From a bacterium UBP6_UBA1177 (GTDB lineage: Bacteria > UBP6 > UBA1177), in NCBI GenBank assembly GCA_002310995.1, contig DBYV01000044.1, forward strand, positions 25,635 to 85,677: a stretch of 60,043 nt of DNA. The letters are read 5' to 3'. The number at the start of each line of letters is the position of its first letter. The stretch's first letter is position 1. The position numbers and the translations under genes are program-made. This document shows positions 35,050 to 54,255 of the stretch, in pieces. Below the pieces are notes generated by a model. It saw nothing but the letters and a program-made list of their open reading frames with translations, was not told where the DNA came from and did not search any database.

Positions 35050-35053
35050 AAAT

Positions 35054-35087
35054 ATCTAAATTTCAAAATCGTTCAATAAAATTAGAT
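35054..35087. repeat. 34-bp direct repeat, left copy (ORF6N cassette)
   Basis: atctaaatttcaaaatcgttcaataaaattagat; 32/34 identical to 36128-36161. Confidence 0.92.
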
Positions 35088-35117
35088 AGTTAGATTTTTG
35101 TTCAAGGCGTGTTTTTC

Positions 35118-35963
35118 TCACAAAACAAGTTCAGGATTACTCAACAGATTTTCAATCAGCGGTTTATAAATAGCATTGTCTGCTGTTATTGTAATAGAAC
35201 AGACTTTGTTTCCTGCATCCTTTGACGATGCTCCGCAGTGGTAAATTTTTTCATTTTCAGTGCCGAAATCAAGAATGATGTATCGATCATGCAAAATGCC
35301 GTTTGTTTCTTTTGCTTCAGCATAAATCTGCTGATAAGCAAGATCAGCTTCGACAACTTTTCCATTTAAAAAGAGAAAATCCTTTTTTATTTCGTTGTTG
35401 CTGAAGTCTTCAATAATTTTAATAACATCGGTTTTTGTAACCATACTATCTTCAATTCCTTGAATCTTTTCGGACAGCAAATCCTGTCTGCTTTGCAGAA
35501 GTTTAAGTTCCTGATACGGAATCAGCTGGGCGTTATGCCTGACATAATGCGCGATTTCGACAAAAACATTGATAATCTGAATACTCGCCGCAATAGCTCT
35601 CGGAGTGTGTAAAACGGATGTAAGCATTGTTAATCCATGTTCGCTGTAAACAGTAGGGTTGTTGCTTCGACCACCTTTAATGCCCTTTGTCTGCATCGGT
35701 ATTCCAATTTGGAATAGCGATATTTCCTGATCAGTAGGTGTAAAACAGAAATTTTCTGGAAATCTTTCAATATTTCTGTTTTTTGCTTTATTCAGATTTC
35801 CAGTTGTAACACCGAAATATGCAGCAATATCTCTGTCTAACATAACACGTATTCCGCGAATCTCGTAAATCTGTGATTTCACTTTGTTTTTATCTATTGA
35901 CTCAAATAACTCCAGCTCGTTTTTCGAGCTAAAATTTTCATGTTCCGGCAAATTATTTTCCAT
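35118..35963 (-). CDS. ORF6N (KilA-N-like) domain protein, probably carrying an internal in-frame deletion
   Basis: IYEIRGIRVMLDRDIA...NIERFPENFCF...YSEHG; C-terminal HDRYIILD...CGASSKDAG. Confidence 0.8.
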   Translation of the reverse strand: MENNLPEHENFSSKNELELFESIDKNKVKSQIYEIRGIRVMLDRDIAAYFGVTTGNLNKAKNRNIERFPENFCFTPTDQEISLFQIGIPMQTKGIKGGRSNNPTVYSEHGLTMLTSVLHTPRAIAASIQIINVFVEIAHYVRHNAQLIPYQELKLLQSRQDLLSEKIQGIEDSMVTKTDVIKIIEDFSNNEIKKDFLFLNGKVVEADLAYQQIYAEAKETNGILHDRYIILDFGTENEKIYHCGASSKDAGNKVCSITITADNAIYKPLIENLLSNPELVL

Positions 35964-36127
35964 ATACAGTCATCCCCAAGAAACAATTTTTTAACAACAT
36001 GCTTATACTATAATTTAAGTTTTTATCAATAAATTTTGATTTTAAATTAAAAATTGTCGTCTTTTCGTGGCGACACAACGCAATCACCACTCGCATTTCC
36101 TCATTCTCCGAATCAACATTGTCTAAC

Positions 36128-36161
36128 ATCTAAATTTCGAAATCATTCAATAAAATTAGAT
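36128..36161. repeat. 34-bp direct repeat, right copy (ORF6N cassette)
   Basis: atctaaatttcgaaatcattcaataaaattagat; preceded by GTCTAAC. Confidence 0.92.
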
Positions 36162-36187
36162 GAATTCAAAAAAACTTCATTTTTTAT

Positions 36188-36215
36188 TTGCATTTCAAGA
36201 TTTTTTCTGCATAAT
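36188..36215 (+). promoter_or_regulatory. Sigma70-like promoter of the methyltransferase locus
   Basis: TTGCAT-N16-CATAAT. Confidence 0.5.
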
Positions 36216-36247
36216 TAACGAAGTGTTTTTTAGTCAGGGGATAATCC

Positions 36248-36355
36248 ATGAAAACAGCAAAACCATTTGTAAAGTGGGTCGGTGGCAAGAGCCAATTGTT
36301 GGAAGCAATAAGAACAAAATATCCCGAAAATATTGAGAAATATTAAAAGCCTTTT
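36248..36355 (+). pseudogene. 5' remnant of a Dam/DpnM-type adenine methyltransferase
   Basis: Manual translation MKTAKPFVKWVGGKSQLLEAIRTKYPENIEKY*KPF matches the Dam start (KPFxKWxGGK...YxEPF), then stops. Confidence 0.85.
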
Positions 36356-36445
36356 CGTGCTTGGTAGTTCCCCAAAATAAATTTGATAAAATATTGTTTC
36401 TGAATAGATTGGATCGTTTTTATTCATCTTTTAAGGAGTAGATGT

Positions 36446-37372
36446 ATGAATTGTTTGGCAGATAGCATATTCAGCTGTTTTAAAAATCAGCCTGAATTTA
36501 CATTGAAATCAGCTTATGAACAGTATTCAGACAAACCAAAAGAAACTGTCAGAGCTAGAATTTATGATAATTTAGGTGTTAAATTTGAGCGCGTTGCAAA
36601 AGGCCTTTATCGCACGATACAAGGAGAAGAAACCTGTGTCGTTATTGAGGGCGACGGACGAGATTTGTCTATGTTTAAAGATAAATCTATTGATTGTATT
36701 TTGACAGATCATCCATGGTTGGATTTGAAATCAAATAAAGGCGGAGACAGAGCTTTCGCGGAATACGAATGCTTTGAATATACACTTAAAGATTTTGAAG
36801 AAAAAAGCAGAATCTTAAAAGATGGTTGTTTTCTTGTTGAAATACTTCCTGCTGAAAATGAAAATAATTACAAGTACTTATACAAAATCAAAGAATATGC
36901 TGAAAAAGCAGGATTGTTTTATTATGCTAAAGTAACATGGAAAAAAGGTGACTTTGTCAGCAATACTGGTAGAAAAGCAAAGAACTCGCAGGATGTAATG
37001 TTCTTTTCCAAAGGTAAAGCTAGAAATATGCGGTTGGATGTAAAGAAAACTCAGAAATTAGGATATGATTGCTATATGAGCGGAACTTTGAAGATGTTGC
37101 CTACAATGTTTGATATTCCGCCAGTTTCCAAAAAGGATAAAATACATCAAAGCGAATTGCCTCTGACACTATGTGAAGAAATTTTGCGATATATTACTTA
37201 TCAAGGAGAGATAGTACTTGATTCTTTTGCTGGGAGCGGAGTTGTCGGAGAAGCCGCTTTGAATTTGAAGAGAAATTGCATTTTAATAGAAATTGCTAAG
37301 GAAAATATCAAAAAAATACAAAAAAGATTTTCGGAAAATATAAATTTCAGGGAAGATTTAGCGTTTTTATAA
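36446..37372 (+). CDS. Site-specific DNA methyltransferase (N6/N4, beta class) with N-terminal wHTH-like extension
   Basis: Motif IV variant ILTDHPW precedes motif I VLDSFAGSG; HQSELP. Confidence 0.85.
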   Translation: MNCLADSIFSCFKNQPEFTLKSAYEQYSDKPKETVRARIYDNLGVKFERVAKGLYRTIQGEETCVVIEGDGRDLSMFKDKSIDCILTDHPWLDLKSNKGGDRAFAEYECFEYTLKDFEEKSRILKDGCFLVEILPAENENNYKYLYKIKEYAEKAGLFYYAKVTWKKGDFVSNTGRKAKNSQDVMFFSKGKARNMRLDVKKTQKLGYDCYMSGTLKMLPTMFDIPPVSKKDKIHQSELPLTLCEEILRYITYQGEIVLDSFAGSGVVGEAALNLKRNCILIEIAKENIKKIQKRFSENINFREDLAFL

Positions 37373-37382
37373 AGGTGACAAA

Positions 37383-38138
37383 ATGAAAAAAATGACCCAA
37401 GCCGAAGCAGTAGTGCAAACATTAGAACGCTTAGGTGGAATTGCAACTTTAGGACAACTGAATCAGGAAGTTTTTTGTATTGAAGATTGTGAATGGAAAA
37501 CGAAAACGCCGTTTGCTTCAATAAGAAGAATTGTCCAAACAGATAATCGAATTTATAAAATTAAACCAGGACTTTGGGCATTGAAAACATATCGAAAACA
37601 GCTTGAACAACGCGGAATAATTACAGAAAATGAATTAAATCAAAACTCAACAGAAGTGCAGGAATTCAATCATTCATACTATCAGGGTTTGTTACTTTCA
37701 ATAGGAAATATTAAGGGATTGGGAACTTATGCACCGAATCAAGACAAAAATAAAAGTTTTGCTAACGGAAAAATAGATGATTTGCGTTCCATTCAATCAA
37801 TTCCTGCTTTTTCTTACGAGCAGCTTGTAAAAAGAAGTTCTACAATTGATGTTATCTGGTTTAATGAAAGAACAATGCCAGATTCTTTTTTTGAGGTTGA
37901 ACATTCAACGGATATTACGAATTCACTGCAAAAATATAATGATTTGCAGGATTTTCATACTAAGATGTATATCGTGGCAGATAAAAGAAGAGAGGAGGAA
38001 TTCTGGAACAAATTTGCTTATGCTTCTTTTGAGAAATTGAAAAGTGAAAATCGTGTGAAATTTTTAAGTTATGGAGAGTTGGACGATCAATATCAACAAG
38101 CTGTTAAACTTCAGTCTATAAATACTGTTATATTATGA
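37383..38138 (+). CDS. Putative PD-(D/E)xK-type nuclease with N-terminal wHTH (restriction-like)
   Basis: KTKTPFASIRRIVQ HTH-like region; IDVIW...FFEVEHS acidic active-site-like motif; sits among methyltransferase genes. Confidence 0.55.
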   Translation: MKKMTQAEAVVQTLERLGGIATLGQLNQEVFCIEDCEWKTKTPFASIRRIVQTDNRIYKIKPGLWALKTYRKQLEQRGIITENELNQNSTEVQEFNHSYYQGLLLSIGNIKGLGTYAPNQDKNKSFANGKIDDLRSIQSIPAFSYEQLVKRSSTIDVIWFNERTMPDSFFEVEHSTDITNSLQKYNDLQDFHTKMYIVADKRREEEFWNKFAYASFEKLKSENRVKFLSYGELDDQYQQAVKLQSINTVIL

Positions 38139-38590
38139 TTTCCTGCAAATTTTTTACTCATTCAACGGAATTTCTTTTGTGGGCGAGAAAAAGTAAGAAA
38201 GTATCGCATTATTATAATTATGAGTTGATGAAAGAAATCAACGGCGGAACGCAGATGCGGGATTTATGGACTCTTCCTGCTATTGCAAGATGGGAAAAAT
38301 TGTGCGGAAAGCATCCGACACAAAAGCCGTTGCCGTTGCTTGCTCGTATAATTCTTGCTTCAACGCATGAAAACGAATGGATTTTAGACCCGTTTACAGG
38401 CTCAAGCACAACAGGAATCGCGGCAAGCCTGCTTGGTCGTAAATTTGTAGGAATCGACAAGGAAAAAGAATATGTCGAACTCTCAAAAAGGCGCAGAATC
38501 GAGATCGAAGATCCTGCTAAAAGAGAGGAGTATCGCAACAGAATCGCACGATATAACAATCAACCTTTGTTAGAAATCCAAGAAATATAA
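38135..38590 (+). pseudogene. 3' half of a DpnA-type (beta class) methyltransferase
   Basis: ISCKFFTHSTE, GKHPTQKP, ILDPFTGSSTTG present; the N-terminal DPPY half is missing. Confidence 0.8.
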
Positions 38591-38670
38591 TAAAACTGCC
38601 GAAGATTTAGTTCTAAATTCTGAGCAAAAGACGACATATTGCGTTTGTATCAAATTTTTTCCACAACATC

Positions 38671-38698
38671 TTGACTTTTTCTTAAGATTATGTAAACT
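38671..38698 (+). promoter_or_regulatory. Sigma70-like promoter of the AbiTii operon
   Basis: TTGACT-N16-TAAACT. Confidence 0.55.
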
Positions 38699-38778
38699 AA
38701 CCGTAATTTAATCCATTGGAGGTGGGCATTGGAATTGAAGGTTAGTAGAGGTGTAGGATTGATTGATGGAGGCGAAAA

Positions 38779-39669
38779 ATGAGTAGCATAGTTTTGGAAC
38801 TCCAAAGAGAGGTGATAAGGGAAGGCTGCGATGTTTTAAATCTTCTAAGAAAAGCACATGTTATTGCTGCAAAACTCAACTTGGAAAAATTCGATAAGTG
38901 GGTTTTGTCAGAGTTAAATGGCTATAAAAACAAAGATTCCATACCAGAATATCGTTCTATAAACGGATCTTTAAAGGGATGGAATCCTTATCATGGTTGG
39001 CTTACGGTTACGTTGTTAGATAAAAGTTTGGAAAAAGTGCTTTGTACAAAAAAAGAAGGAGAATCTCTTGGGGCTTTAATTGAACTTGAAAAAAAATCTG
39101 ACGGCTTTTTTTTGATTTATTTCAATGCCGAATTGAACTCGATAGTAAATTCTTTACGTGAATTCCCTCTACCAACGCGATACTCGTTGCATTGTAGTTC
39201 ACATCAAATAAAATCAATAGTCGAACATGTGAAGAATACTATATTGGAATGGACAATTAGACTTGAAACGGAAGGAATATTGGGGGAAGAAATGCAATTT
39301 AATTCTGAAGAAAAAGAGTCAGCAAAACGGATTACTCAGACGATAAATATTTATGGTAGTGCAAATGTTATCAATGGTGATGCCCCAAACTCTGCAATTG
39401 TTGCTGGAAACGAAAATACAGTCACATATACTTCAAAAGTGCTGAATGCTGTTTCCGAAATTGAATCGTCCTTGAATAACGAAGATATTTCATCCGAAGA
39501 TAAAGAAACAGCAATTGAAATGATCGCAGACATCAAGGAAAAAGTATCGCAGGAGAAAAAGTCGAGTATTTTGAGATCTGCATTTATAGGTTTGTTAGAT
39601 TTCGTAAGTGGAGTAGGCGCCAGTCTTACTGCCGCGCTAATTCAATCGAAAATACAGGGATTGTTCTGA
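38779..39669 (+). CDS. AbiTii-domain protein
   Basis: IVLELQ...LLRKAHVIAAKL...WVLSELNGY...PEYRSI...NPYHGW resembles the AbiTii domain; hydrophobic C-terminal helix. Confidence 0.75.
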   Translation: MSSIVLELQREVIREGCDVLNLLRKAHVIAAKLNLEKFDKWVLSELNGYKNKDSIPEYRSINGSLKGWNPYHGWLTVTLLDKSLEKVLCTKKEGESLGALIELEKKSDGFFLIYFNAELNSIVNSLREFPLPTRYSLHCSSHQIKSIVEHVKNTILEWTIRLETEGILGEEMQFNSEEKESAKRITQTINIYGSANVINGDAPNSAIVAGNENTVTYTSKVLNAVSEIESSLNNEDISSEDKETAIEMIADIKEKVSQEKKSSILRSAFIGLLDFVSGVGASLTAALIQSKIQGLF

Positions 39670-39691
39670 GATATTACAGAGGTGTACTGCT

Positions 39692-40624
39692 ATGGCACGA
39701 AAGAAAGTTGAAACAATAGTCAAAGATAAAATAAAACCTTTTTTACTTAAAGACAAGGACAGTGACTTTTTGGATCAGTTATCTCGGCAATATTCTTATA
39801 GATTGCTTGTAAACAGCATTGATGAGGCTACAAAATATCTTGAATATGATGAGAATGGGCAAGTAATCGAAGCGTCAATACAACGATTCTTAAAAAAAAT
39901 CGATAGCATCGCTCATAATAAATCTCTTCCGCTAATTGAGCAAAAGATTGTTCATATAGATAATAAGGGAAAAAAATATATTATGGAGTGGGACTCGCAA
40001 GAAGCTTGTGTTTTGTTACAGGCTTGTGTCAAGGGATTGAAGTCATTAAGATGGTCAAACGAAAGAATAGTAAAAGAATTTCTAGAGGAAACTTTGACCG
40101 AGACGAGAAATGTAGAGTGGTCTACATGGTTCAAAAAAATTAAAAAATTTAATAATAAGATTAAGAAGTCGATAAAAAACGATAATAGAACTATCAAGCA
40201 ATCCGGAACGATTTTACCAGAAGGACTTTTTGTGGAACTGCCACATAATTTTGGTTCTATTTGTAAACAAATCAATGCAAGTTACGAAAATCATCTTTAC
40301 GATTGCACGGCAGTAATGATGCGCCATTTACTAGAAATTTTGCTAGTTTTATCTTATCAAAAAGCTAACATTGAGAATGAAATAATGGCCAGTGATGGAA
40401 AACATCATGTTCCGCTTGACTCTATGATAAAAAATGCAGTTAATAATTCAAAATTAGCTCTCTCGTTAAGCACAAAAAACGACATGAGACATTTTAAAGA
40501 TTTGGGTAATTATTCTGCACATAAAATTTGGTATAGCTGCACTAAAGGAGATTTAGAACCTCATATACTTAAATATCGAGCTATTATTGAAGAACTCTTT
40601 TATAAATCTGGGATTAAAAAATAA
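39692..40624 (+). CDS. Unknown N-terminal domain + DUF4145/HEPN-like C-terminal domain
   Basis: QINASYENHLYDCTAVMMRHLLE...LGNYSAH is typical of DUF4145. Confidence 0.65.
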   Translation: MARKKVETIVKDKIKPFLLKDKDSDFLDQLSRQYSYRLLVNSIDEATKYLEYDENGQVIEASIQRFLKKIDSIAHNKSLPLIEQKIVHIDNKGKKYIMEWDSQEACVLLQACVKGLKSLRWSNERIVKEFLEETLTETRNVEWSTWFKKIKKFNNKIKKSIKNDNRTIKQSGTILPEGLFVELPHNFGSICKQINASYENHLYDCTAVMMRHLLEILLVLSYQKANIENEIMASDGKHHVPLDSMIKNAVNNSKLALSLSTKNDMRHFKDLGNYSAHKIWYSCTKGDLEPHILKYRAIIEELFYKSGIKK

Positions 40625-40650
40625 GTTCTGGAACAAACCCAACAATCCCA

Positions 40651-40750
40651 CTCATTGAAATCAAATTCTGCGAAAGTCGAGTCCTTGAAGTTGAGCAATA
40701 AACACTTGAATTTATTTGGATATCCGTTTAAGGTCGAAATTTTTGACCTT
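40651..40750. repeat. About 100-bp degenerate direct repeat, left copy (decayed AlbA_2 mini-ORF plus palindrome)
   Basis: Ungapped alignment to 42731-42830 gives 73/100 identities by manual count. Confidence 0.85.
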
Positions 40751-40780
40751 AGACGAAGACCTATTTTTTTCTGATTTCGC

Positions 40781-40860
40781 GAGACGTTTCAGGAAACGCC
40801 TCTACCGATTTTAGGCGCCCCTGATTTCAGGGGAGCTGCCGCAAGCGGCTGAGGGGTCTG
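40781..40860. repeat. REP-like composite element (GTAG-type hairpin plus double hairpin)
   Basis: GAGACGTTTC-AG-GAAACGCCTC-TAC; CCCCTGA-TT-TCAGGGG; GCCGC-AA-GCGGC. Confidence 0.75.
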
Positions 40861-40985
40861 TAAGGATTGCAAATCCGCAGACAAAAATTCCAAAATAATC
40901 TTAAAATAAAAAACAAAAAATAATTTGACTTTCTTGATAAATACATAAATTTTGCTGAGATTGTTTGGAAACGGAGCCCAACCCG

Positions 40986-41099
40986 ATGACCCCACTCAAT
41001 AAACTCAAATCCGGCGAGAGCCGAACCCTTGAATTTAAGCGGGAACTGCCGCAGAATGCGGGAAAGAGGGGGAACGGCGATAATTTGGAGGAAATATAA
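40986..41099 (+). pseudogene. 37-aa mini-ORF encoding an AlbA_2 N-terminal fragment
   Basis: MTPLNKLKSGESRTLEFKRELPQNA...; the stop abuts the ATG at 41100. Confidence 0.7.
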
Positions 41100-42725
41100 A
41101 TGAATCTCGATATCAATCAAAAGTTGGACGAACTTCTTTCGATGAAATATGAAACTGAGACCGTTGAATTTAAAGAAGCTAAAGAGACTTTTGCTTTTGA
41201 TGATCTCGGAAAATATTTTTCAGCTTTGAGCAATGAAGCGAACCTTCACAATGAAAAATATGCATGGCTCGTTTTTGGTGTTGAAGACAAAAAACACAAT
41301 ATTGTCGGGACAAATTACAAAAATGATGACAAGTCTTTGCTGGCTCTGAAAGAGGAAATGGGAAAGCAGACTACAGGAAATTTAACTTTTGTCGAAATAT
41401 ATACTTGCCTTAGAAAAGCCAAAAATAACGAGGAAAAACGAGTTCTTGTTTTCCAAATTCCGGCTGCTCCGTGCGGAATGCCGGTTGCATTCAAAAGAAT
41501 GTATTACGGGCGTGACGGCGAGGCTCTTGTCGGGCTGAGTATCGAAAAAATCGAGAGGATCCGCGCCCAGAATGTTACGAATGACTGGAGTGCGCAGATC
41601 ATTCCAAACGCTACGTTCGAGCATCTTTCAAAAGAGGCGATTTCGCTTGCGCGGAAAATGTATGCCGAAAAGAATCCTCATCTTGCTTCTGATATTGAGC
41701 GTTGGAGCGATTCGACTTTTTTGAATAATGCACGGCTTACACGCGAAGGCAAGATCACCAATACGACGATCCTGCTTTTGGGAAAGCCAGAATCGGCAGA
41801 TTTGATTATTCCGGCTATCAGTCAAATTACCTGGATTCTGAAAGACCGTGACGGCATGGTAAGGGATTATGAACATTTTTACTGCCCGCTCATTGTTTCG
41901 GCAGAGAAAGTTCAGGCAAAAATACGAAATCTAACATCCCGTTACATGACCGGCGATTCGATTTTTCCGAAAGAAACTTTGCAGTACGATCCTTACATTA
42001 TCCGCGAGGCGTTGAACAACGCTATCGCTCATCAGGATTATTCAAAAGCGGGAAGAATCACCGTTCAGGAGCACGAAGACGACTATCTGATTTTCTGCAA
42101 CTGCGGCGATTTTATTCCGGGAAGCATAAAAAATGTTTTGAAAGCTGAATATTCTGCGAGCAATTACCGCAATCCGTTTCTTGCGACTGCAATGGTCAAT
42201 CTGAACATGATCGACACTGTCGGAAGCGGTATCCTGAAAATGTTCCTTGCTCAGAAAAAGAGATGTTTTCCTTTGCCCGATTACGATTTTTCAAATCACG
42301 AAGTACGCATGAAACTTTATGGCAAAATCCTGGATATAAACTATACCAGGCGGCTCCTGAATGAAGATTTGCCGCTTTCTGAAGTCTTCGAATTGGATAG
42401 AAAACAGAAAGAAGAATTCATTTCGCATAGAAACGATCCTGTAAAAGAACAAGTAAAGGAACAAGTAAATGTCCAAGAAAATGTCCAAGAAAATGTCCAA
42501 GAAAAAGGAGTAAATGTCCAAGAAAATGTCCAAGAAAAAACTCGAGAAGAAATGATACTAAATCTTTTGCAGAACAATAATACAATCTCGATACGAGAAC
42601 TTGCAGAGCAATTAAATATGACTGCAAAAACGATTCAGCGAGATTTAGATAAATTAAAGTCACAAAACCTTATCCGCCGCATAGGTCCGAACAAAGGCGG
42701 TCACTGGGAGGTGATTAAAAAATGA
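41100..42725 (+). CDS. Schlafen/AlbA_2 domain + HATPase_c_4 (RecG C-terminal-like) + HTH protein
   Basis: ETVEFKEA...SALSNEA...LVFGVED; IREALNNAIAHQDY; RNPFLA; GSG; C-terminal DeoR-like HTH ending GGHWEV. Confidence 0.88.
   Translation: MNLDINQKLDELLSMKYETETVEFKEAKETFAFDDLGKYFSALSNEANLHNEKYAWLVFGVEDKKHNIVGTNYKNDDKSLLALKEEMGKQTTGNLTFVEIYTCLRKAKNNEEKRVLVFQIPAAPCGMPVAFKRMYYGRDGEALVGLSIEKIERIRAQNVTNDWSAQIIPNATFEHLSKEAISLARKMYAEKNPHLASDIERWSDSTFLNNARLTREGKITNTTILLLGKPESADLIIPAISQITWILKDRDGMVRDYEHFYCPLIVSAEKVQAKIRNLTSRYMTGDSIFPKETLQYDPYIIREALNNAIAHQDYSKAGRITVQEHEDDYLIFCNCGDFIPGSIKNVLKAEYSASNYRNPFLATAMVNLNMIDTVGSGILKMFLAQKKRCFPLPDYDFSNHEVRMKLYGKILDINYTRRLLNEDLPLSEVFELDRKQKEEFISHRNDPVKEQVKEQVNVQENVQENVQEKGVNVQENVQEKTREEMILNLLQNNNTISIRELAEQLNMTAKTIQRDLDKLKSQNLIRRIGPNKGGHWEVIKK
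42441..42540 (+). repeat. Intragenic 12-nt tandem repeat (VQEN/VKEQ)
   Basis: gtccaagaaaat units encoding VKEQVKEQVNVQENVQENVQEKGVNVQENVQEK. Confidence 0.95.
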
Positions 42726-42781
42726 CCTTACTCGATGAAATCAAATCCGGCGAAAGCCAAACTCTCGAATTTAAACAGTAA
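42722..42781 (+). pseudogene. 19-aa mini-ORF encoding an AlbA_2 N-terminal fragment
   Basis: MTLLDEIKSGESQTLEFKQ*; ATGA overlap with the upstream stop. Confidence 0.75.
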
Positions 42782-42830
42782 CCATCTGAATTTATTTGAA
42801 AATCCGTTCGAGGTGCAATTTTTGCACCTC
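42731..42830. repeat. About 100-bp degenerate direct repeat, right copy
   Basis: Colinear with 40651-40750; contains the palindrome CGAGGTGCAA-T-TTTGCACCTCG. Confidence 0.85.
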
Positions 42831-42903
42831 GATGCAATCAATCTGACCAGCGCAAGATAACTCACCAAAATAATTCCCATTTACGTTCAAAAGCATAGAT
42901 GTT

Positions 42904-43060
42904 TCTACCGCTTCTTGCCTCCCATGAAGTAGGAGAGGTGTCACGCAGTGACGGAGAGGTCTGAGATGTTTCTACCGCTTCTTGCCTCCACTGAGTTTAG
43001 GTGTTTTTACCGATTCTCGGCTCCCCTGAAGTAGGGGAGCTGCCGAAGGCTGAGGGGTCT
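42904..43060. repeat. Cluster of three REP-like double-hairpin units (one partial)
   Basis: Units start t(c/t)taccg at about 42904, 42970 and 43006; CTCCCC-N7-GGGGAG, GTCAC-GCA-GTGAC, GCC-GAA-GGC. Confidence 0.8.
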
Positions 43061-43090
43061 ATTCGGTGTCATATTAACTGATAAAATTTC

Positions 43091-43118
43091 TTCACAAACA
43101 AAAGCAAGAGACTATACT
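43091..43118 (+). promoter_or_regulatory. Sigma70-like promoter
   Basis: TTCACA-N16-TATACT then ctCGCG and a T-tract. Confidence 0.55.
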
Positions 43119-43161
43119 CTCGCGTCATTTTTTTGTTTTTTATAAATTTTTGGAGGCTATT

Positions 43162-44376
43162 ATGACTACAAGACTTGAAAACGCTCTTAACAATCATGTC
43201 AACGAGCTCAAAGCAAAAGGAACGGCTAAAGGCGACGAAATGGTCATCACCAAAATTCTCCCGCCCGAAGGCGCAAACGGCCCGCGTTATGTCGTTGAAG
43301 GTTATGAACAGAAGTTTATCAAAATGAATTCAAACAGTTACCTCGGTCTTTCAATGAGAAAGGAAGTCATCGAAGCAGAGGAAGAGGGAACGAAAAACTT
43401 TGGTGTCGGTCCCGGTGCTGTCCGCTTCATTTCCGGAACCCACAAGGCTCACATCGACCTTGAAAAAAGACTCGCGAAGTTCCACGGCAGAGAATCGGCA
43501 ATGCTTTTCTCAAGCGCTTACGTCACTTCGATGGGCGTTATTTTCCCGCTTATCACCAATGAAACAGTCATCATCAGCGACGAGCTCAACCACAACTGCA
43601 TCATCAACGCGATGAAACTTTCCCGTCCGGCACTCAAACTTATATACAAACACAACAGCATGGAAGACCTTGAAGCAAAACTTCAGGAAGCTGTAGGCAA
43701 AGGCAAAAGATGCATCGTCGTAACAGACGGCGTTTTCTCGATGAGAGGCGACTTCTGCCCGTTCGACAAATTCACGGCGATCTGCAGGAAATACAACGAC
43801 AAATTCGAAGAAGGCGTAACGACTGTTGCTGACGATTCCCACGGTGTAGGCGCTTACGGCAAGACCGGAAGAGGAACAGAGGAAGTTACCGGCGCGAAAG
43901 TCGACATCCTTATCGGCACGCTCGGAAAATCATACGGCGTAAACGGCGGATACGTTGTCGCATCCAAAGCAGTAACCGAATTCTTGAGACAGACCGCTCC
44001 GATGTATATCTACTCGAACCCGATCACGGTCGGCGAAGCTTACGCAGTTCTCAAAGTTCTCGACATCCTTGAAAGCGAAGAAGGCATCAAACGCCTTGCA
44101 CACCTTGCAGAAATCACAGCAAGATTCGAAAAAGGACTCGTTGACAACGGCTTCGAGACGATCGCAGGTCCGCACCCCGTAACTCCGCTCATGGTCAGAG
44201 ACACCAAAAAGACGGCAGACATCGTTGCATGGCTCACGAAGAACGGCGTCCTCGCAACGGCTATGAACTACCCGGTAGTTCCGAAAGGCGACGAAGAGAT
44301 CCGTTTCCAGATCAACGCGGACCACACCGCAGCCGATATCGACTACGTAATCAACGTTCTGAAATCATTTAAATAA
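43162..44376 (+). CDS. PLP-dependent alpha-oxoamine synthase (Kbl/BioF family)
   Basis: NSYLGL, SDELNHNCII, DGVFSMRGD, DDSHG, GTLGK (PLP Lys); GGAGG RBS before ATG 43162. Confidence 0.9.
   Translation: MTTRLENALNNHVNELKAKGTAKGDEMVITKILPPEGANGPRYVVEGYEQKFIKMNSNSYLGLSMRKEVIEAEEEGTKNFGVGPGAVRFISGTHKAHIDLEKRLAKFHGRESAMLFSSAYVTSMGVIFPLITNETVIISDELNHNCIINAMKLSRPALKLIYKHNSMEDLEAKLQEAVGKGKRCIVVTDGVFSMRGDFCPFDKFTAICRKYNDKFEEGVTTVADDSHGVGAYGKTGRGTEEVTGAKVDILIGTLGKSYGVNGGYVVASKAVTEFLRQTAPMYIYSNPITVGEAYAVLKVLDILESEEGIKRLAHLAEITARFEKGLVDNGFETIAGPHPVTPLMVRDTKKTADIVAWLTKNGVLATAMNYPVVPKGDEEIRFQINADHTAADIDYVINVLKSFK
44335..44376. repeat. 42-bp direct repeat, left copy (3' end of the Kbl/BioF gene)
   Basis: gatatcgactacgtaatcaacgttctgaaatcatttaaataa; 39/42 identical to 45581-45622. 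Confidence 0.97.
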
Positions 44377-44393
44377 TCCCGTTTTTATCATCG

Positions 44394-44419
44394 GTAGAGA
44401 CGTCATAATACGGTGTCTC
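44394..44419 (+). repeat. Degenerate GTAG-type REP-like hairpin
   Basis: GTAGAGACG-tcataatacggt-GTCTC. Confidence 0.45.
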
Positions 44420-44462
44420 AGACCACAAAACCAGCAACAATCAAAATAGAAACTATTGTTAA

Positions 44463-44498
44463 TTATTATTGACAAAATAATTTCTTTGTTAATAATAA
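44463..44498 (+). promoter_or_regulatory. Palindromic operator overlapping the promoter of the hipBA-like operon
   Basis: TTATTATTGACAAA-N8-TTTGTTAATAATAA (13/14 inverted match); contains TTGACA-N16-AATAAT. Confidence 0.7.
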
Positions 44499-44552
44499 TA
44501 AAAGTTGTTCTTGTTTTTGGGGGTCGTTTTGAAAGGACACAGCATTATCGTT

Positions 44553-44852
44553 ATGCCTTCGACGCAGAAAATTCTTGAGCAAATGGGAGAGCAGATAAAA
44601 CTTGCCCGCCTCAGAAGAAAACTCAGCGCGGAACTTGTGGCGGAACGTGCCGGAGTAAGCCGTGTCACGCTTTGGAACATCGAAAAAGGCTCGCCGTCAG
44701 TTGCGATGGGAGCTTATGCGGCAGTCCTTCATGCAATCGGCGGAATGGACAGAGACCTGCTTTTGATTGCGAAAGACGACGAACTCGGGCGGAAACTTCA
44801 GGATCTCGGGCTTCTGCCGAAAAAACGGGCTCCGAAAAAGGAGGCTGAATAA
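44553..44852 (+). CDS. XRE-family HTH protein (HipB-like antitoxin)
   Basis: GEQIKLARLRRKLSAELVAERAGVSRVTLWNIEKG; start uncertain (TTG 44529 also possible). Confidence 0.85.
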   Translation: MPSTQKILEQMGEQIKLARLRRKLSAELVAERAGVSRVTLWNIEKGSPSVAMGAYAAVLHAIGGMDRDLLLIAKDDELGRKLQDLGLLPKKRAPKKEAE

Positions 44853-45596
44853 TGGCAGCGGGAGAGAAAAAAATATATGTTTACGAAAACTGGTCATCGG
44901 AAATTCCGCGCGAACTCGGTATTTTGTATGTCAGCAATGTCCGAGGAACGGAGACTTTTTCCTTCGAATACAACGAAGAATATCTGAAAAATCCTGTTTC
45001 GTGCAGTATAGATCCGGATCTGGAGCTTTTTCAGGGCAGACAGTTCACGTATCAAAAACCTAATTTCGGTATTTTTTCCGATTCCGTTCCGGACAGATGG
45101 GGTCGCACTCTCATGGATCGTCGTGAAAGATTCCGTGCAAAGGAAGAAGGGCGTAAACCTCGGACTCTGCTTACAAGCGATTATAAAAAACGGTGCAAAA
45201 CCAAAAGAGGATCTTACCGAACTCTGGAAAAGAATCGTTTTCAATATGGCGGTTTCCAACACAGACGATCACCTCAGAAACCACGGTTTTATCCTTTCCA
45301 AAAACGGCTGGAGGCTTTCTCCTGCTTACGATATAAACCCGAATCCTGCAGGAGAGGGACTTGCGCTGAATGTCAGCGAAAACGATAATTCAATCGATAT
45401 AAATCTCGCGCTGAGCACTCACAGATTCTATCAGCTTGAAAAAGATAAAGCTGCAAAAATCGCTTCGGAAATATGTCTTGCCGTCAGCAGAAACTGGGAG
45501 AAAATTGCTTCAAAACACGGAATCAGCCGCAGCATGATTGAACTTATGCGACCTGCGTTCAACGCAGCGGTTAAGAATAAGATATCGACTACGTAA
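44852..45596 (+). pseudogene. hipA: HipA-family kinase toxin, internally deleted and frameshifted
   Basis: N-terminal FSFEY...FGIFSDSVPDRWGR in one frame; C-terminal NTDDHLRNHG...LSPAYD in another; they meet near gattat at 45179-45184 with the central part absent. Confidence 0.85.
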
Positions 45597-45622
45597 TCAA
45601 CGTTCTGAAATCGTTCAAATAG
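45581..45622. repeat. 42-bp direct repeat, right copy
   Basis: gatatcgactacgtaatcaacgttctgaaatcgttcaaatag. Confidence 0.97.
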
Positions 45623-45758
45623 TCTTTTAAATCTCTGACTTAATCTCGCATTTTCCTTAAAATCGAGTATAATCCTCTGTTTTTTGTTACGTTTGAAATG
45701 TCTTTAAAATTGAAAATTTCGGTACAAATGAAAAGTCGGGATGTTTTTTGAGGGTAAA

Positions 45759-48700
45759 ATGAAGAAATTATTTGTTGTTTTCGCGCTTTTATGCACATTT
45801 TTTATGATTTCCTGCGGAAGCTCAAAAGATAAGGCAAAGCGCGGCGAACTTTACGGCGAATGTTATCCGGACGGAACCTGTAACGAAGGGCTTGTCTGCG
45901 ATACTGAGTATAATGTCTGCATAGAAGATCCCGATTTTGAAGATGACGAAGATAAAATTGACTCAGATGAAATAGATTCTGATTCGATTGATGACATTGA
46001 TAAATTCGATGATACTGAAAACGATGCTGAGCCGGCAGATCCGTGTGATCCTGATCCGTGCAAAGAACTTGAACATTCAAACGGAAAGTGCAAAACGGTT
46101 TCTGAATCACGTTATTCCTGCGGATGTGTTGAAGGATATTATTGGTTGGAAGAGGAAAATATATGTACTGACAGACCGACTCTCGGCAATATATGCTCGG
46201 GGCAGAAATACTGCTACGACGACGGTTTGTTGATCAGCTGTCCTTTATCTGATGAGGATTTTTACGGTCAGGATGCGCAATATGCGGAAGCCGGCACATG
46301 CATACAGCAGAATTTTACAATAAAAAAAGCTCCGGGACAGAATATCGTTGTGGACGACAATACTAGTCTTGAGTGGCAGCAGGCTGCTTCGGATAAAGAA
46401 TATACGTTCGAAGAGGCTAAAAACTATTGCGACGAGTTAGTTTACGGGGGATATTCTGACTGGCGTCTGCCTGAACCGCACGAAATTTTATCGATTGTCA
46501 ATATCGGACAGAACAATTCATTTATAAACAATAACTTCACAAATATATCGGCTGACTATGATGCAGAGTTGTGGACTTCTCACGAATCCAAGTGCTTAAG
46601 AGTTAGTGAAGGGTCATATTCTTATTGCAGTTCACGATCAAAAAATGTGCTGTGTGTTCGCGGCAGCAAAATGAAAAAAGGTCTTTTTTCATCAAAAACC
46701 ATCAATGGAGATATTGTTGTCATTGATGCGGTTACGGCTCTGATCTGGCAGAAAGATTCAGATTTCAGAAGCACTTGGAAAGAGGCTTTGAAATATTGCG
46801 AAAATCTGGATTATGCCGGCAGGCGCGACTGGCGTCTGCCCAATAAAAACGAAGTTATTTCACTGATGGATTTTGACAAATCTGAAGAGCCTTATTCTGA
46901 TTTTCCTGATATACCTGGTTGGTTATGGTCTTCCTCTAATTCTTTTTACGTGGAAGATGCATGGTGCGCGGATTTTTCCAGAGGTTATTTGTCACCGTTA
47001 TGCTATAAAAGGAGTGAGAGTTCAGTTCGTTGCGTTACCGGTGGACGCGGTGTAGATCCTGATGATCCCTGTAATCCGAATCCGTGCGTAAATATCGCCA
47101 ATTCGACAGGGGAATGCAAAAAACTCTCTCCGAAACGTTATTCCTGCGAATGTGCCGAAGGTTATTATTTGTGGGAATCGGAAAACGCCTGTCTTGAAAA
47201 AAAGCCGCTTACCGTCGGTGAGATCTGCACGGGGCAGACACAGTGTTATGACAATGCTTCGGCAGGGGACTGCCGCGAGTTGACCTGCTCCGATTTTTAC
47301 GGTCAGGATGCACAGTATGCGGCTTGGGGAGTCTGTACACCGCAGAACTTCACTGTAAAAACAGTTGACGGGCAAAATATCGTTATAGACAACAACACCG
47401 GTTTTGTCTGGCAACAGTCTCCTTCCTCCGAAGAATACTCTTGGGAAGAAGCAAAAAAACACTGTATTGATTTGAATAAATCCGGTTTTGCCGGTTTCAG
47501 TGGCTGGCGCGCTCCAACAGTGCATGAACTGCTTTCAATTGCGGACAACAGTTCATCTAGTTCCGGAATAAATCCGAATTTTACAAATATAAGTTCCTGC
47601 CTGTGGAGTTCCGAAATATACAGCGATGTAAAATGCAATGTGCTTTGTGTTCACGGAAGTGAAATGCCCAAAGCAGTTTTTATGTCAGAAATGGTAGGTG
47701 AAGATGTTATCGTTACCGATTCAACGACAGGTTTGATATGGCAGAAAAATTATGACTCAAAAAAATGGACAAAGGCTTTGAAATATTGTGAAGATCTGGA
47801 TTATGCCGGCCGCACGGACTGGCGTCTGCCAAATAAAAACGAGCTGGCTTCACTACTGAACCTCACAAAATCTGATCAGTGTTATTCCGATTTTCCAGAT
47901 ATGGACTGCCAGCCATGTGTATTCTGGTCTTCATCCGCGCCTGTCAGAGTGGACGACAATGACTATGCATGGTTTGTCGATTTCAAAAGCGGAGTAGCTA
48001 ACACCAATCGAAAGATAGAAAACTACGCAGTCCGCTGTGTTGCAGGAGGAGGCGTTATCAAACTTGAAGATCCGTGTGAGCCCAACCCGTGCGGAAATTT
48101 TTCAAATTCAACCGGAGTATGTCAGGCAAGTTCGGAAATACTTTATTCATGCGGATGTGCTGATGGATATTACTGGTGGGGAGTTGAAGCGGGATGTGTT
48201 GCTGCAAAACCTATGTCGATAGGCAAAATCTGCACGGGACAGACAAAGTGCTACGGTGAAAATCAAGTGTTTGAAACTTGTCCGGCAGAGGGAGAAGACT
48301 TTTACGGTCAGGATGCTCACTATGCGGCCTTGGGAATTTGTCTGCCGCCGAGTTTTAGTTTAGATGAAACGGTTCCTGAACAAAAACTTATTGTGGACAA
48401 CAATACCGGTCTGAAGTGGCAGCAGACACTTGACGAAAACACATACACTTGGGAAGATGCGCAGAATTATTGCAATAACCTGAATTATGCAGGCTACAGC
48501 AGTGGTTGGCGAGTTCCAACACCGATAGAATATACGACAATAAATAAGACTGATTTTACGAATATGACATCTCCGTATCTCTGGACTTCAAAAAGTTTTA
48601 ACAGTAATAATGCACGGACTTTTAACCCGTCAGGCGGAACAACTGGATATACTTCAAAACCATTCACTTATCAGGTGATATGTGTTCACGGCAGCGAAAT

Positions 48701-49079
48701 GCCAAAAGGAGTTTTTACAACAAAAACAGTGAATGACGATGTCGTTGTAAACGATCTGATAACAGGTTTGATGTGGCAGAAAGATTGGAATTCCAGAATC
48801 ACTTGGAAGGAGGCTTTAAAATATTGCGAAGATCTGGATTATGCCGGCTATACTGACTGGCGTCTGCCAAATAAAAACGAGCTTGCATCACTCATAAACT
48901 TTGATAAATCAATGGAAGTCTATTCCGATTTCCCCGATCTTATACCGTCGGATGACCGCTTCTGGTCATCTACCAACATCGGCAGTCAAGCAAATTTTAT
49001 TAGTTTTTCCGGCGGGTATGTAGGGCGCGACGGCAAAAGCTATACTTATTTCGGCAGATGCGTGAGAAACGCAGATTAA
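45759..49079 (+). CDS. Large lipoprotein with 3 x (EGF-like + 2 x DUF1566) modules
   Basis: Signal ending MISC; three DPCxPxPC units; repeated FYGQDAQY, DNNTGLxW, WRLPNKNEL, VRCV. Confidence 0.88.
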   Translation: MKKLFVVFALLCTFFMISCGSSKDKAKRGELYGECYPDGTCNEGLVCDTEYNVCIEDPDFEDDEDKIDSDEIDSDSIDDIDKFDDTENDAEPADPCDPDPCKELEHSNGKCKTVSESRYSCGCVEGYYWLEEENICTDRPTLGNICSGQKYCYDDGLLISCPLSDEDFYGQDAQYAEAGTCIQQNFTIKKAPGQNIVVDDNTSLEWQQAASDKEYTFEEAKNYCDELVYGGYSDWRLPEPHEILSIVNIGQNNSFINNNFTNISADYDAELWTSHESKCLRVSEGSYSYCSSRSKNVLCVRGSKMKKGLFSSKTINGDIVVIDAVTALIWQKDSDFRSTWKEALKYCENLDYAGRRDWRLPNKNEVISLMDFDKSEEPYSDFPDIPGWLWSSSNSFYVEDAWCADFSRGYLSPLCYKRSESSVRCVTGGRGVDPDDPCNPNPCVNIANSTGECKKLSPKRYSCECAEGYYLWESENACLEKKPLTVGEICTGQTQCYDNASAGDCRELTCSDFYGQDAQYAAWGVCTPQNFTVKTVDGQNIVIDNNTGFVWQQSPSSEEYSWEEAKKHCIDLNKSGFAGFSGWRAPTVHELLSIADNSSSSSGINPNFTNISSCLWSSEIYSDVKCNVLCVHGSEMPKAVFMSEMVGEDVIVTDSTTGLIWQKNYDSKKWTKALKYCEDLDYAGRTDWRLPNKNELASLLNLTKSDQCYSDFPDMDCQPCVFWSSSAPVRVDDNDYAWFVDFKSGVANTNRKIENYAVRCVAGGGVIKLEDPCEPNPCGNFSNSTGVCQASSEILYSCGCADGYYWWGVEAGCVAAKPMSIGKICTGQTKCYGENQVFETCPAEGEDFYGQDAHYAALGICLPPSFSLDETVPEQKLIVDNNTGLKWQQTLDENTYTWEDAQNYCNNLNYAGYSSGWRVPTPIEYTTINKTDFTNMTSPYLWTSKSFNSNNARTFNPSGGTTGYTSKPFTYQVICVHGSEMPKGVFTTKTVNDDVVVNDLITGLMWQKDWNSRITWKEALKYCEDLDYAGYTDWRLPNKNELASLINFDKSMEVYSDFPDLIPSDDRFWSSTNIGSQANFISFSGGYVGRDGKSYTYFGRCVRNAD

Positions 49080-52300: not shown

Positions 52301-52711
52301 TCTTCAGGAACAAAAGTAATTTGTGTTCACGGCAGCCGGATGGCTCACTCTGTTTTTGTATCAGAAACAGTGGATGGGGATGTCGTCGTGACCGATCTTA
52401 CTTCAGGTCTGATGTGGCAGAAAAAAGGCGATTTCTCAGGCAATTGGAGTACGGCACTGAAATATTGCAAAGATCTGGATTATGCCGGATATTCCGATTG
52501 GAGGCTGCCGAATAAAAACGAACTCGCTTCACTGCTGAATTACGACAGGCGGATGTCTCCGTATTCTGATTTTCCGGACATGTCGCGATACAGTGAGGGA
52601 AACCGGTTTTTGTCCTCCACCAATAACGACGGTCCGGCATGGAATGTGGATTTTTATTCAGGTATAGTGAGTAACGATAACAACAGATCAAATATCAGGT
52701 GTGTGAGATAG
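49352..52711 (+). CDS. Large lipoprotein with six DUF1566 domains and two EGF-like units (paralog of the 45759 gene)
   Basis: Signal ending VSGC; shared GExYGECYP...C...G..CD N-terminal module; three DUF1566 pairs. Confidence 0.88.
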   Translation: MKKILFYMLLFLAVLFLATVSGCSKNNGKKRGEIYGECYPNKTCNKGLICDTEENVCIQDPDFEKDDEDRISSDMDSDETDIDLTDDNNTTNDSDNEAEPVEPDENNITGKFTLGNICTGQTFCYDTASWMSCPVFGDDFYGQDAQYAEAGTCKPQNFTVKTVSEQNMVVDNNTGLEWQEKISTETYTFKEAENYCSESVYGGYSDWRVPSPQELLTIVDSSRFNPATNSIFTNMPDDKEIYLWTSKESRYFVVAEGLYSYYGNNANSYNVLCVRGRKMPEALFTSETVKGDIVVTDSTTDLIWQKDSGYTGSWKEALKYCEDLDYAGYTTWRLPNKNEAASLLNLNRAEAPYSDFPDMPVDGFWSSTSYGEGELAWWADFYSGRVFRSSKDENFAVRCVTGGNGVKTANPCDPNPCESLSNSTGECRTISEKLYSCGCADGYYWWDSELKCTDKKPLSLGEICTGQTKCYDYPEQVECSEMTNAKAYGQDAQYAGWGVCEPQNFTVKTVEGQKIVVDNNTGLKWMKSPSSETHHWIEAQVYCDNLNLSGYAGYDRGWRVPTPQELLTIVDNSNYYPVLDSSFSKLNGNGCLWTSQQCSVYVENSEEVYRFENSSGKIVPTIKQDNCNALCVNGKEMGKAVLMSQTVDGDVVVTDSTTGLIWQKEYGKQDWTGALRYCEELVYAGRADWRLPNKNELASLLNYDKTEPPYSDFPDTPSGSDSNFRTSTPYQDSGTRYPNFWVVYFEDGSILPNQSTTLSVRCVTGGRDLKFGNPCDPNPCGNLANSTGECTSLSETRYLCGCSDGYYWWDAENGCVDTKPPSLAEICTGLTSCYNDNHQIITCPSSEEDDFFGQDAQYAEAGVCRQHSFTVKTISGQNIIMDNNTGLEWQQEITGGYVFEDALNYCNTLNYAGYSSGWRVPSPQELLTIVDYSNYRPTIDTAIFTNMTAMTTEDHQLWTSKSRDGSVARVFNPVNGSIKSREKSSGTKVICVHGSRMAHSVFVSETVDGDVVVTDLTSGLMWQKKGDFSGNWSTALKYCKDLDYAGYSDWRLPNKNELASLLNYDRRMSPYSDFPDMSRYSEGNRFLSSTNNDGPAWNVDFYSGIVSNDNNRSNIRCVR

Positions 52712-52833
52712 CGTAAACACTTTCTGCAAAATAATTCCCCCAAAATTTAATAAGTAAAAAAATTACTATTTTTTTTCAGATGGCTATAATACGCCGTTTT
52801 GTTTTTTACTAACCGTTTTTTTAGGAGTTTGAA

Positions 52834-54255
52834 ATGGCAGAAAAGAAAGCGGCAAAGAAAGCCGAAAAATTCGATCCGAAGACCCTGACCTATTCCAAAA
52901 AATCAGGCTGGGACGGTATCTCCGAAGCTAAGATGAAAGAGATCATGGACTTCGCTGAAGGTTACAAAAAATTCCTCACTGACGCTAAAACCGAGCGTGA
53001 AGCTGTCAGCACGATCTTCGAACTTGCAAAAGCGAAAGGCTACAAAAACATCGAAAACGCAAAAGCAACCGACAAGAAGATTTTCATCAACTTCGACAAC
53101 GTTGCATGCGTTCTCGCTGAAATCAATCACACCGATTTCGAAAAAGGCTGGCTCATGGTCGGTTCACATATCGACACGCCGAGACTCGACCTCAAAGGCT
53201 ATCCGCTTTACGAGAAAGAGGATATGGCTTACTTCAAAACGCACTACTACGGTGGAATCAAAAAATATCAGTGGGTTACGAGAGCTCTCGCACTTCACGG
53301 CGTTGTAATCACCGAAGCAGGCAAAACGGTTAACGTTGTTGTCGGCGAAGACGAAAACGATCCTGTTTTTACAATCAACGACCTTCTTCCGCACCTCGCT
53401 CAGGAGCAGATGGAAAAAGGAGCAAGAAAGGTAATCGAAGGCGAGAATATGAACATTCTCATCGGCTCGATTCCTTATTCCTTCAAATATGACAAAGACA
53501 GCGTAAAACTCGCTATCCTTGATTTCCTCTACAAAAAATACGGCTTCAAAGAGGAAGATTTCGTTTCTGCCGAGCTTCAGCTTGTTCCGGCTGGAAAGGC
53601 AAGAGATGTCGGCTTCGACAGAAGTTTTGTCGGTGCTCACGGCCAGGACGACAGAATCTGCGCTTACAGTGCGTTGCAGGCAATTTTTGACGCAGGCAAA
53701 ACGAAAGAGAACAAGTTTGCGATGTTCTTCGACAAAGAAGAAATCGGCTCGAAAGGTAACTCCGGCGCAAACTCCAACATTCTTGAAAGAGCTGTCAACA
53801 AACTTATAAACCTTTACGGAAAAGGCGATTACAATACACTCATCAACTCTCTTGCAAACAGTAAGTTCCTCAGCTCCGACGTCAATGCGGGTGTCGAACC
53901 TGAATGGGCAGGCGCTTTTGAACCGATGAACGCAGGAAAGGTCGGCTGGGGCGTATGCCTTACAAAGTTCACCGGCGTAGGCGGCAAAGGCAACTCCAAC
54001 GAAGCACATGCTGAATTTGTTGCAAAATGCAGAGCTGCTTTCAACAAAGACGACGCACGCTGGCAGACAGCAGAACTCGGAAGAGTAGACCTTGGCGGCG
54101 GCGGCACAATCGCTATGTTCATCGCTGAATACGGAATGCAGGTTCTTGATGTCGGCACACCGATCCTTTCGATGCACAGCCCGTTTGAAGTTGCTTCGAA
54201 AGCTGACCTTTACAACACCTATCTTTCCTACAAAGCATTTTACAAATATCTTTAA
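52834..54255 (+). CDS. M18-family aminopeptidase
   Basis: SHIDTPR, QDDR, KEEIGS, SSDV, SMHSPFE zinc-ligand motifs. Confidence 0.92.
   Translation: MAEKKAAKKAEKFDPKTLTYSKKSGWDGISEAKMKEIMDFAEGYKKFLTDAKTEREAVSTIFELAKAKGYKNIENAKATDKKIFINFDNVACVLAEINHTDFEKGWLMVGSHIDTPRLDLKGYPLYEKEDMAYFKTHYYGGIKKYQWVTRALALHGVVITEAGKTVNVVVGEDENDPVFTINDLLPHLAQEQMEKGARKVIEGENMNILIGSIPYSFKYDKDSVKLAILDFLYKKYGFKEEDFVSAELQLVPAGKARDVGFDRSFVGAHGQDDRICAYSALQAIFDAGKTKENKFAMFFDKEEIGSKGNSGANSNILERAVNKLINLYGKGDYNTLINSLANSKFLSSDVNAGVEPEWAGAFEPMNAGKVGWGVCLTKFTGVGGKGNSNEAHAEFVAKCRAAFNKDDARWQTAELGRVDLGGGGTIAMFIAEYGMQVLDVGTPILSMHSPFEVASKADLYNTYLSYKAFYKYL

Follow-up and report, generated by a model that had tools for sequence, protein, structure and literature searches.

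A repeated kbl gene end around a decayed hipBA cassette: a probable recombination scar in a cassette hot spot

Direct repeats that copy the end of a gene and surround a small cargo are usually read as attachment (att) sites. The locus described here raises the question of whether that reading holds. In a 60,043-nucleotide stretch of contig DBYV01000044.1 from the bacterium UBP6_UBA1177, called the window below, the last codons of kbl, a gene of the Kbl/BioF family of pyridoxal phosphate (PLP) acyltransferases, recur downstream of a hipBA toxin–antitoxin cassette. The original prediction took the two copies for the attL and attR of an integrase-less element with a protein-coding attB. Comparison with related genomes points instead to a recombination scar, doubling as a portable homology arm, in a hot spot for cassettes where a decayed HipBA module is the cargo, and not to a minimal site-specific element; this reading is given a probability of about 60%.

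The repeated gene end and its empty sites

The left copy, r1 (44335-44378, plus strand), is the working end of kbl: the gene's final 42 nt, with the last 14 codons and the stop, plus 2 nt. The right copy, r2 (45581-45624, plus strand), lies 1246 bp downstream and agrees with it at 41 of 44 bases. The longest unbroken match covers 32 nt at the 5′ end of the repeats, and the three mismatches (TCA/TCG, TTT/TTC and TAA/TAG) are all silent in the kbl frame. The 44-nt pattern, with up to three mismatches allowed, occurs exactly twice in the window, where shuffling (100 shuffles) predicts no occurrence, so that alignment and pattern count together bear out the repeat as first described. A scan of JGI metagenome contigs, from which records close to this genome may be missing, gave 0 matches to a degenerate form of the 44-nt repeat. 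The differences are probably silent because both copies derive from functional kbl alleles, and r1 would still be under selection.

The inventory between the repeats stood in part. The operator, the XRE-type gene and hipA are there, but hipA is not intact, having lost 526 bp, and 77 nt of native kbl 3′ flank had been overlooked. This flank (44377-44453, plus strand) lies outside the hipBA module and includes a stem-loop at about 44393-44424 with an 8-bp stem, a folding energy of -11.3 kcal/mol and no U tract. It is shared with two related genomes, G012 and G008, in the latter as far as 44419; since G008 has the hairpin and no hipBA, the hairpin belongs to kbl. Similarity to hipBA copies at other loci begins only at 44459, which places the start of the module proper at about 44454-44459. 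Up to position 44453, r1 and the hairpin are an ordinary kbl 3′ end, as in G012 and G008.

The right copy has a different setting. It begins immediately at the hipA stop-codon position, and the broken hipA frame of the window runs on into it (ISTT*). Together with about 88 nt of downstream flank, r2 is identical to the kbl end of a third genome, G014. These matches suggest that r2 is the older, resident kbl end, left as a non-coding stub (the last 42 nt plus 2) of a displaced gene, and that r1 is the copy that keeps the Kbl protein intact. The proposed selection on an att copy for its protein sequence is not needed, r2 being the kbl allele of G014 and r1 the current functional end.

The kbl 3′ region was compared after a search of 40 related genomes. 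G014 and G001 have an exact empty site, in which kbl passes straight into the flank found downstream of r2 in the window. That right flank of the empty-site allele (45625-49079, plus strand) consists of a promoter region and the first Lcl_C/DUF1566 lipoprotein gene (45759-49079; Pfam Lcl_C, E=1.4e-127). In G012, kbl and the same hairpin lead into hipB and an intact hipA of 415 aa; about 20 nt later the upstream region of an M18-peptidase gene begins, and no second kbl fragment lies within 18 kb. Behind kbl in G008 only the hairpin is held in common, followed by convergent housekeeping genes, and G002, G007, G013, G004 and G006 have a small lipoprotein gene there instead. The window thus looks like one allele of a variable locus whose core genes are kbl on the left and the M18-peptidase gene, from about 52834, on the right; the M18 label, at about 52.8 kb, comes from a Pfam match on the gene's homologue. 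The M18 region of the window is itself a mosaic, G014-like at 52600-52950 and G007/G002-like past about 53500.

Among 15 species representatives of the genus, two kbl-core copies occur only in the window's own genome (G000). The relatives were expected to show the empty site and perhaps larger elements at the same place; the empty site is there, in G014 and G001, and a larger element is absent from the 15 genus genomes, just as the 14 others have no second kbl core. These comparisons also bear on another origin, in which kbl was duplicated in tandem on the spot, one copy shrank to a 42-nt remnant and hipBA entered between the two. The existence of a second kbl fragment is the sole point in its favour. 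No relative has a tandem kbl, no further kbl sequence lies between the hipA stop and r2, and r2 and its flank match the allele found in a different clade (G014). With the empty sites in G014 and G001 clean, insertion is upheld over the decay of a duplicated whole gene, which is highly improbable.

Transfer of kbl together with its cassette

Look-up of the window's exact HipB protein and of near-identical HipA proteins uncovered five further contigs (L108-L112) from at least four other rumen samples. All carry the order kbl, r1, hairpin, hipB, intact hipA (418 aa), r2, Lcl gene and M18 peptidase, and three of them (L110-L112) share the TCA/TTT/TAA variants of r1. The junction in all five reads GTTAAATAA joined to GACATCTATTACGT, with the hipA stop directly touching r2. 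From r2 to the contig end these sequences are 97.95-99.4% identical to G014. Over the 715-854 nt of kbl visible before r1, identity to G014 drops to 91.2%, against 94-95% to G012 and to the window. Because kbl stands at about 91% against 97.95-99.4% downstream, the exchange was not confined to a core within the repeat. In L108 the first 15 nt of r2 hold 4/15 mismatches to G014, and this clustering puts the end of the imported tract within the stub. The import into a G014-type chromosome would therefore comprise kbl and hipBA, with its right boundary within r2. This mosaic shows that the toxin–antitoxin pair in all likelihood hitch-hiked across species with a housekeeping gene, and that the allele, once founded, spread by homologous recombination.

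Such a structure has to be weighed against a decayed site-specific integrative element, in which a tyrosine or serine recombinase would have placed a hipBA element at the kbl 3′ end, with r1 and r2 as attL and attR and the att copy restoring the gene. Direct repeats of a gene's 3′ end on both sides of the insert and a precise empty site in relatives are present, as such an element would have them. Cis-mobilizable elements (CIMEs) are defined by retained attL and attR and the loss of integration genes (PMC5704250), and the start of r2 in L108-L112 (GACATCTAT) is unlike every kbl allele, as an unconstrained element-side arm might be. Other observations speak against it. G012 has the same cassette with no attR, and r1 with its hairpin is the ordinary flank of kbl. 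The whole visible kbl is foreign on a G014-like background, which takes the exchange beyond any core, and host-type kbl upstream of r1, expected for a core-limited exchange, is not seen in L108 or L110. The right end coincides with the hipA stop and leaves no surplus element DNA, and other loci of the same hipBA have different, ragged ends, with repeats of other genes (19-112 nt) or none.

Nor does a recombinase gene accompany the cassette. Integrases elsewhere in the genome had been suggested as a check, and three tyrosine recombinase genes are present in the genome (84% complete), none of them on this contig. No integrase was found among the open reading frames (ORFs) downstream of kbl in G008; those of G012 and G003 were listed, not family-searched. 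As already noted, none of the 14 other genus genomes has a larger element or a second core at the site. The cassette without a second repeat in G012, the foreign kbl upstream and the lack of a nearby integrase together leave the assignment of r1 and r2 as attL and attR unsupported, and a decayed element of this kind is considered quite unlikely.

Two further candidates for a mobility signal were set aside. An integron reading, prompted by a GTTRRRY motif at the hipA end and an attC-like hairpin, was rejected: the hairpin is plain and occurs in a hipBA-free genome, the repeat is kbl coding sequence, and the window's own sequence departs from the motif. The REP-like units that precede kbl (42896-43060) belong to a dispersed family unrelated to the kbl repeat. 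No tRNA, tmRNA or known RNA was found as an insertion target.

A Campbell-type insertion would produce the repeats by another route. A circle carrying hipBA and about 44 nt of kbl end, formed for example by excision between r1 and r2, would enter by a single RecA-dependent crossover and duplicate the homology. This yields exactly the observed topology and partition of differences, the 32-nt identical run is near the minimum for homologous exchange, and the recurrence of the repeat-flanked form would be accounted for. The circle must, on the other side, form first and then enter as double-stranded DNA; resident-type kbl is predicted upstream of r1, which L108-L112 contradict; and the arrangement in G012 is left unexplained. 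Such an insertion is accordingly unlikely as the source of the allele.

The preferred reading, a scar of plain recombination, would unfold in a few steps. In one lineage, a hipBA module would have become established right after kbl and its hairpin, giving the arrangement of G012. A segment with donor kbl and hipBA would then have recombined into a genome in which kbl is followed by the Lcl gene, as in G014 and G001. On the left the exchange would be homologous, within or upstream of kbl; on the right, hipA would have been joined non-homologously, at its stop codon, to the resident kbl at position -42. Donor kbl would thereby displace the resident gene save its last 42 nt, the present r2. From there the allele would have passed between species by homologous recombination, with the whole of kbl as left arm and the stub, plus flank where shared, as short right arm. 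In the window lineage a 526-bp deletion would later have destroyed the toxin gene, while hipB and its promoter/operator survive. No dedicated recombinase would be involved. The outcome resembles homology-facilitated illegitimate recombination (HFIR), as far as the inferred steps go. As every carrier has the same joint between the hipA stop and kbl position -42, it arose a single time. Homologues of the uptake genes ComEC and DprA are present in the genome, which makes it plausible that linear DNA is taken up.

Several points weigh against this account. The founding joint formed only once, and a site-specific event, a circle with short homology and an illegitimate joint would each leave this topology, so that the sequence does not tell them apart. 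Little microhomology is seen at the joint, 0-4 nt (GATA) as far as can be judged; the junction TAA/GAYATC offers at most a 4-nt GATA-type match to the 3′ flank of G012. A CCGATA microhomology, found after the hipA stop in G012 and at kbl position -44, was tried and rejected, since it does not reproduce the observed junction. At 42 nt, the right arm is short for RecA-dependent exchange, and natural competence is putative. Exact-protein look-ups for same-species variants returned three to four contigs of the same population, every one a carrier of the insertion. Finally, the opening 9 nt of r2 in the window read GATATCGAC and equal r1, as do its first 32 nt as a whole, where the other carriers have GACATCTAT. 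An r1-like start in the window needs an additional step; gene conversion between the copies, or another resolution of the joint, could explain it. The cassette could still be deleted by recombination across the 32 identical bases of r1 and r2.

The HipBA cargo and gene-end stubs at other loci

The gene that provides the left arm, kbl (43162-44376, plus strand), is intact and encodes 404 aa (Pfam Aminotran_1_2, PF00155, E=7.5e-38); its match to the NCBIfam glycine C-acetyltransferase/BioF family lies under the equivalog cut-offs. It is 89-96% identical to kbl of 11 congeners, and a mosaic analysis of the window copy gave no clear breakpoint, the last 190 nt or so being conserved throughout the genus. 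In G002, a 59%-complete metagenome-assembled genome, three kbl copies lie on contigs C25, C39 and C81, two of them identical over the match; these are probably mixed strains.

The module behind kbl appears to be a HipBA toxin–antitoxin pair with a broken toxin, of which hipB and the promoter/operator remain. An inverted repeat (44459-44502, plus strand; 18-nt arms, 8-nt spacer), the probable HipB operator, encloses the hipB promoter (44469-44496, plus strand; TTGACA-16 nt-AATAAT, 11/12 in a promoter scan), and this operator/promoter palindrome is kept upstream of hipB at every other locus of the same hipBA. The antitoxin gene hipB (44530-44852, plus strand) is intact, starts at TTG and encodes an XRE/HTH_31 protein of 107 aa (Pfam HTH_31, E=2e-9), with a match to the NCBIfam couple_hipB type beneath the cut-off. 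Its stop overlaps the ATG of hipA, and an identical HipB adjoins intact hipA in L108 and L109.

By comparison with intact relatives of 415-418 aa, the window's hipA (44852-45596, plus strand) is a pseudogene in two out-of-frame pieces, 44852-45388 and 45123-45596; the N-terminal piece stays in frame to about 45184 and the C-terminal piece continues from about 45180 in a different frame. The 526-bp internal deletion removed the P-loop and half of the kinase core. Pfam HipA_C accordingly covers only positions 105-213 of 213 (86 bits), compared with positions 1-213 of 213 (177 bits) in the intact L108 allele. Couple_hipA scores 21.9 bits on the N-terminal piece against a Pfam cut-off of 22.5, and is not reported for the L108 HipA at E<=0.001. 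The deletion joint (45180-45184, plus strand) is a 5-nt ATTAT microhomology that aligns with both breakpoints in G012, so the loss looks like a later deletion between ATTAT words in the window lineage; deletions at microhomology do operate at this locus. Nine nucleotides before r2, tried as a palindromic filler, were rejected as such: they are the native hipA tail (SAAVK/NAAVK), missing in G012. In G013 (L017, C20) and G011 (L018, C27), hipA has been inactivated independently by different internal deletions, with hipB intact. The toxin gene is whole in G012 and in L108-L120, and its nearest relatives outside the genus are HipA proteins of gut Clostridia at 60-73% aa identity.

The same hipBA (96-98% aa identity) occupies further loci, with ragged ends and hipA C-terminal tails that read VK, SAAVK, NAAVMKDK or TFTV. 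In L113-L117 it lies in front of an FMN_bind/Fer4 gene, and a duplicate of that gene's 5′ part, from 19 nt (L115) to 112 nt (L113), precedes the cassette; in L113, a fragment of 26 nt from the hipA 3′ end is found upstream of the cassette as well. In L118-L120 it sits in the thiamine (thi) operon, between an amidohydrolase gene and thiG, with no repeat.

Stubs of gene ends are not confined to hipBA. In G004 (L131, C68), G009 (L132, C33) and G008 (C65:19821-19882), 3′ stubs of a TSCPD gene, 62-80 nt long and 92-98% identical, lie 2.9 kb beyond the intact gene; two inserted lipoprotein genes precede them, and a recombinase is absent. Within the window, 34-nt repeats (28832-28865 and 29469-29502) flank a relE/yafQ-type pair and correspond to the end of a lipoprotein gene (..KSDGCSMLFI*). 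That lipoprotein gene fills the interval between the TSCPD gene and comF in G007, G012, G004, G009 and G006 and is gone in the window; the interval is empty in G002 and G010. With kbl, the TSCPD gene, the FMN_bind gene and the lipoprotein gene around the relE/yafQ pair, the genus has four stub loci.

Among HipA relatives in gut Clostridia, hipBA is bracketed by direct repeats of 26-121 nt in 10/80 loci (L029, L034, L053, L060, L072, L081, L083, L084, L100 and L103). Fourteen of the 22 repeat pairs found there bracket hipBA, compared with some 5-10% estimated from locus geometry, and in several loci, L103 and L081 included, the upstream ORF has its stop codon within the left copy. It is possible, if still doubtful, that gene-end stubs of 19-120 nt are a regular, recombinase-free vehicle of cassette mobility in this rumen genus and perhaps in gut Clostridia, in which a small toxin–antitoxin, defence or lipoprotein cassette moves with its adjacent core gene and the stub of the displaced gene serves as a portable second arm. 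In L072 the repeat differences fall at every third base, and in L060 a small serine recombinase lies just past the right copy.

The neighbourhood of kbl holds further inserted material. An 8-kb island (35057-43082), between a transglutaminase-like gene and kbl, is missing in G012 and G008, where the core genes are adjacent; it contains N6/N4 methyltransferase pieces, an NmeDI_C-type nuclease, AbiTii, a 310-aa gene and a Schlafen/AlbA_2-HTH gene. Starting 2 nt past the end of the transglutaminase-like gene (33121-35049, with its stop), a 37-nt repeat (92%; 35051-35087 and 36125-36161) encloses a 1074-bp cassette with a single ORF6N-like gene on the minus strand (35118-35963). The AlbA_2 gene (41100-42725) is bracketed by 74-80% repeats (40642-40850, 40986-41046 and 42722-43050) in which 5′ stubs of an AlbA_2-type gene (MTPLNKLKSGESRTLEFK) are combined with REP-like units. 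These units are dispersed in the genome (contigs C8, C22 and C38) and once adjoin a gene, C38:49099-50151, which, to judge from its N-terminal sequence, may be a tyrosine transposase. A rumen contig of the same population (L025) begins with 72 nt equal to window positions 44382-44453, fused to position 40805; the breakpoint at 44453 falls on the left border of the hipBA module, and the fusion partner is the REP-like unit upstream of the AlbA_2 gene. It may represent a variant strain or arrangement, a tandem duplication or 3649-bp circle of 40805-44453, or an assembler chimera.

Relation to known systems

The case is ordinary in kind and a clear example of a pattern that may be general. Plain recombination can leave gene-end repeats as its scar and use them as a working homology arm, a point relevant to the automatic calling of genomic islands. 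The locus also offers a natural example, datable through relatives, of a toxin–antitoxin pair that moves with a housekeeping gene. The toxin is subsequently lost in part of the carriers, being dead in the window, G011 and G013; G012 and L108-L112 have kept it intact. Were the stub pattern general, a cassette could enter any genome having the core gene, regardless of the sequence beyond, and this would help to explain how integrase-less defence and toxin–antitoxin cassettes move and stack in hot spots.

The cargo itself follows the type II HipBA plan, in which an XRE-type hipB overlaps the gene of the HipA kinase, the promoter lies inside a palindrome and relatives carry a full HipA_C; it differs in that the window's toxin gene lacks 526 bp and Couple_hipA falls just under its cut-off. 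With CIMEs, which retain attL and attR without integration genes, and with other elements at the 3′ ends of protein genes (PMC5704250), the locus shares gene-end repeats around an integrase-less insert and an intact gene. Here, unlike in those elements, there is no trace of integrase-bearing relatives or of an att core in use, and the neighbouring gene was co-transferred. Orphan module stubs of rhs and cdi toxin arrays are similar in that short leftovers of a displaced gene end behind an incoming module supply later homology; there the displaced part is a toxin tip with its immunity gene, whereas here the stub is a housekeeping-gene end and the cargo is unrelated.

For the founding event, the closest comparison is HFIR, described for naturally transformable bacteria (de Vries & Wackernagel 2002; Prudhomme 2002; Meier & Wackernagel 2003, as summarised in PMC6382021). 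Both combine one long homologous anchor, here kbl, with one non-homologous joint, so that foreign DNA is gained and resident kbl up to -42 is lost. HFIR joints form at 3-10 nt of microhomology beside the anchor; here the anchor is supported and the joint has at most 4 nt, a marginal match. HFIR is also known from laboratory transformation, while the present event is inferred from a natural allele.

As a whole, the locus seems to behave like a site of minimal mobile elements (MMEs), a term for alternative small cassettes that occupy one site between conserved genes and are swapped through transformation and homologous recombination (Saunders & Snyder 2002, cited after PMC1797815). Between the same core genes, G012 has hipBA, the genomes G014, G001, G007 and G002 have Lcl genes, and the window has both; mobility genes are absent, and the mosaic tracts of L108-L112 and of the window's M18 region show that exchange ran through the flanks. 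Classical MMEs use two full flanking genes and no stub. At this locus, by contrast, two cassettes are stacked, and between them a 42-nt stub of the left core gene would act as the right arm.

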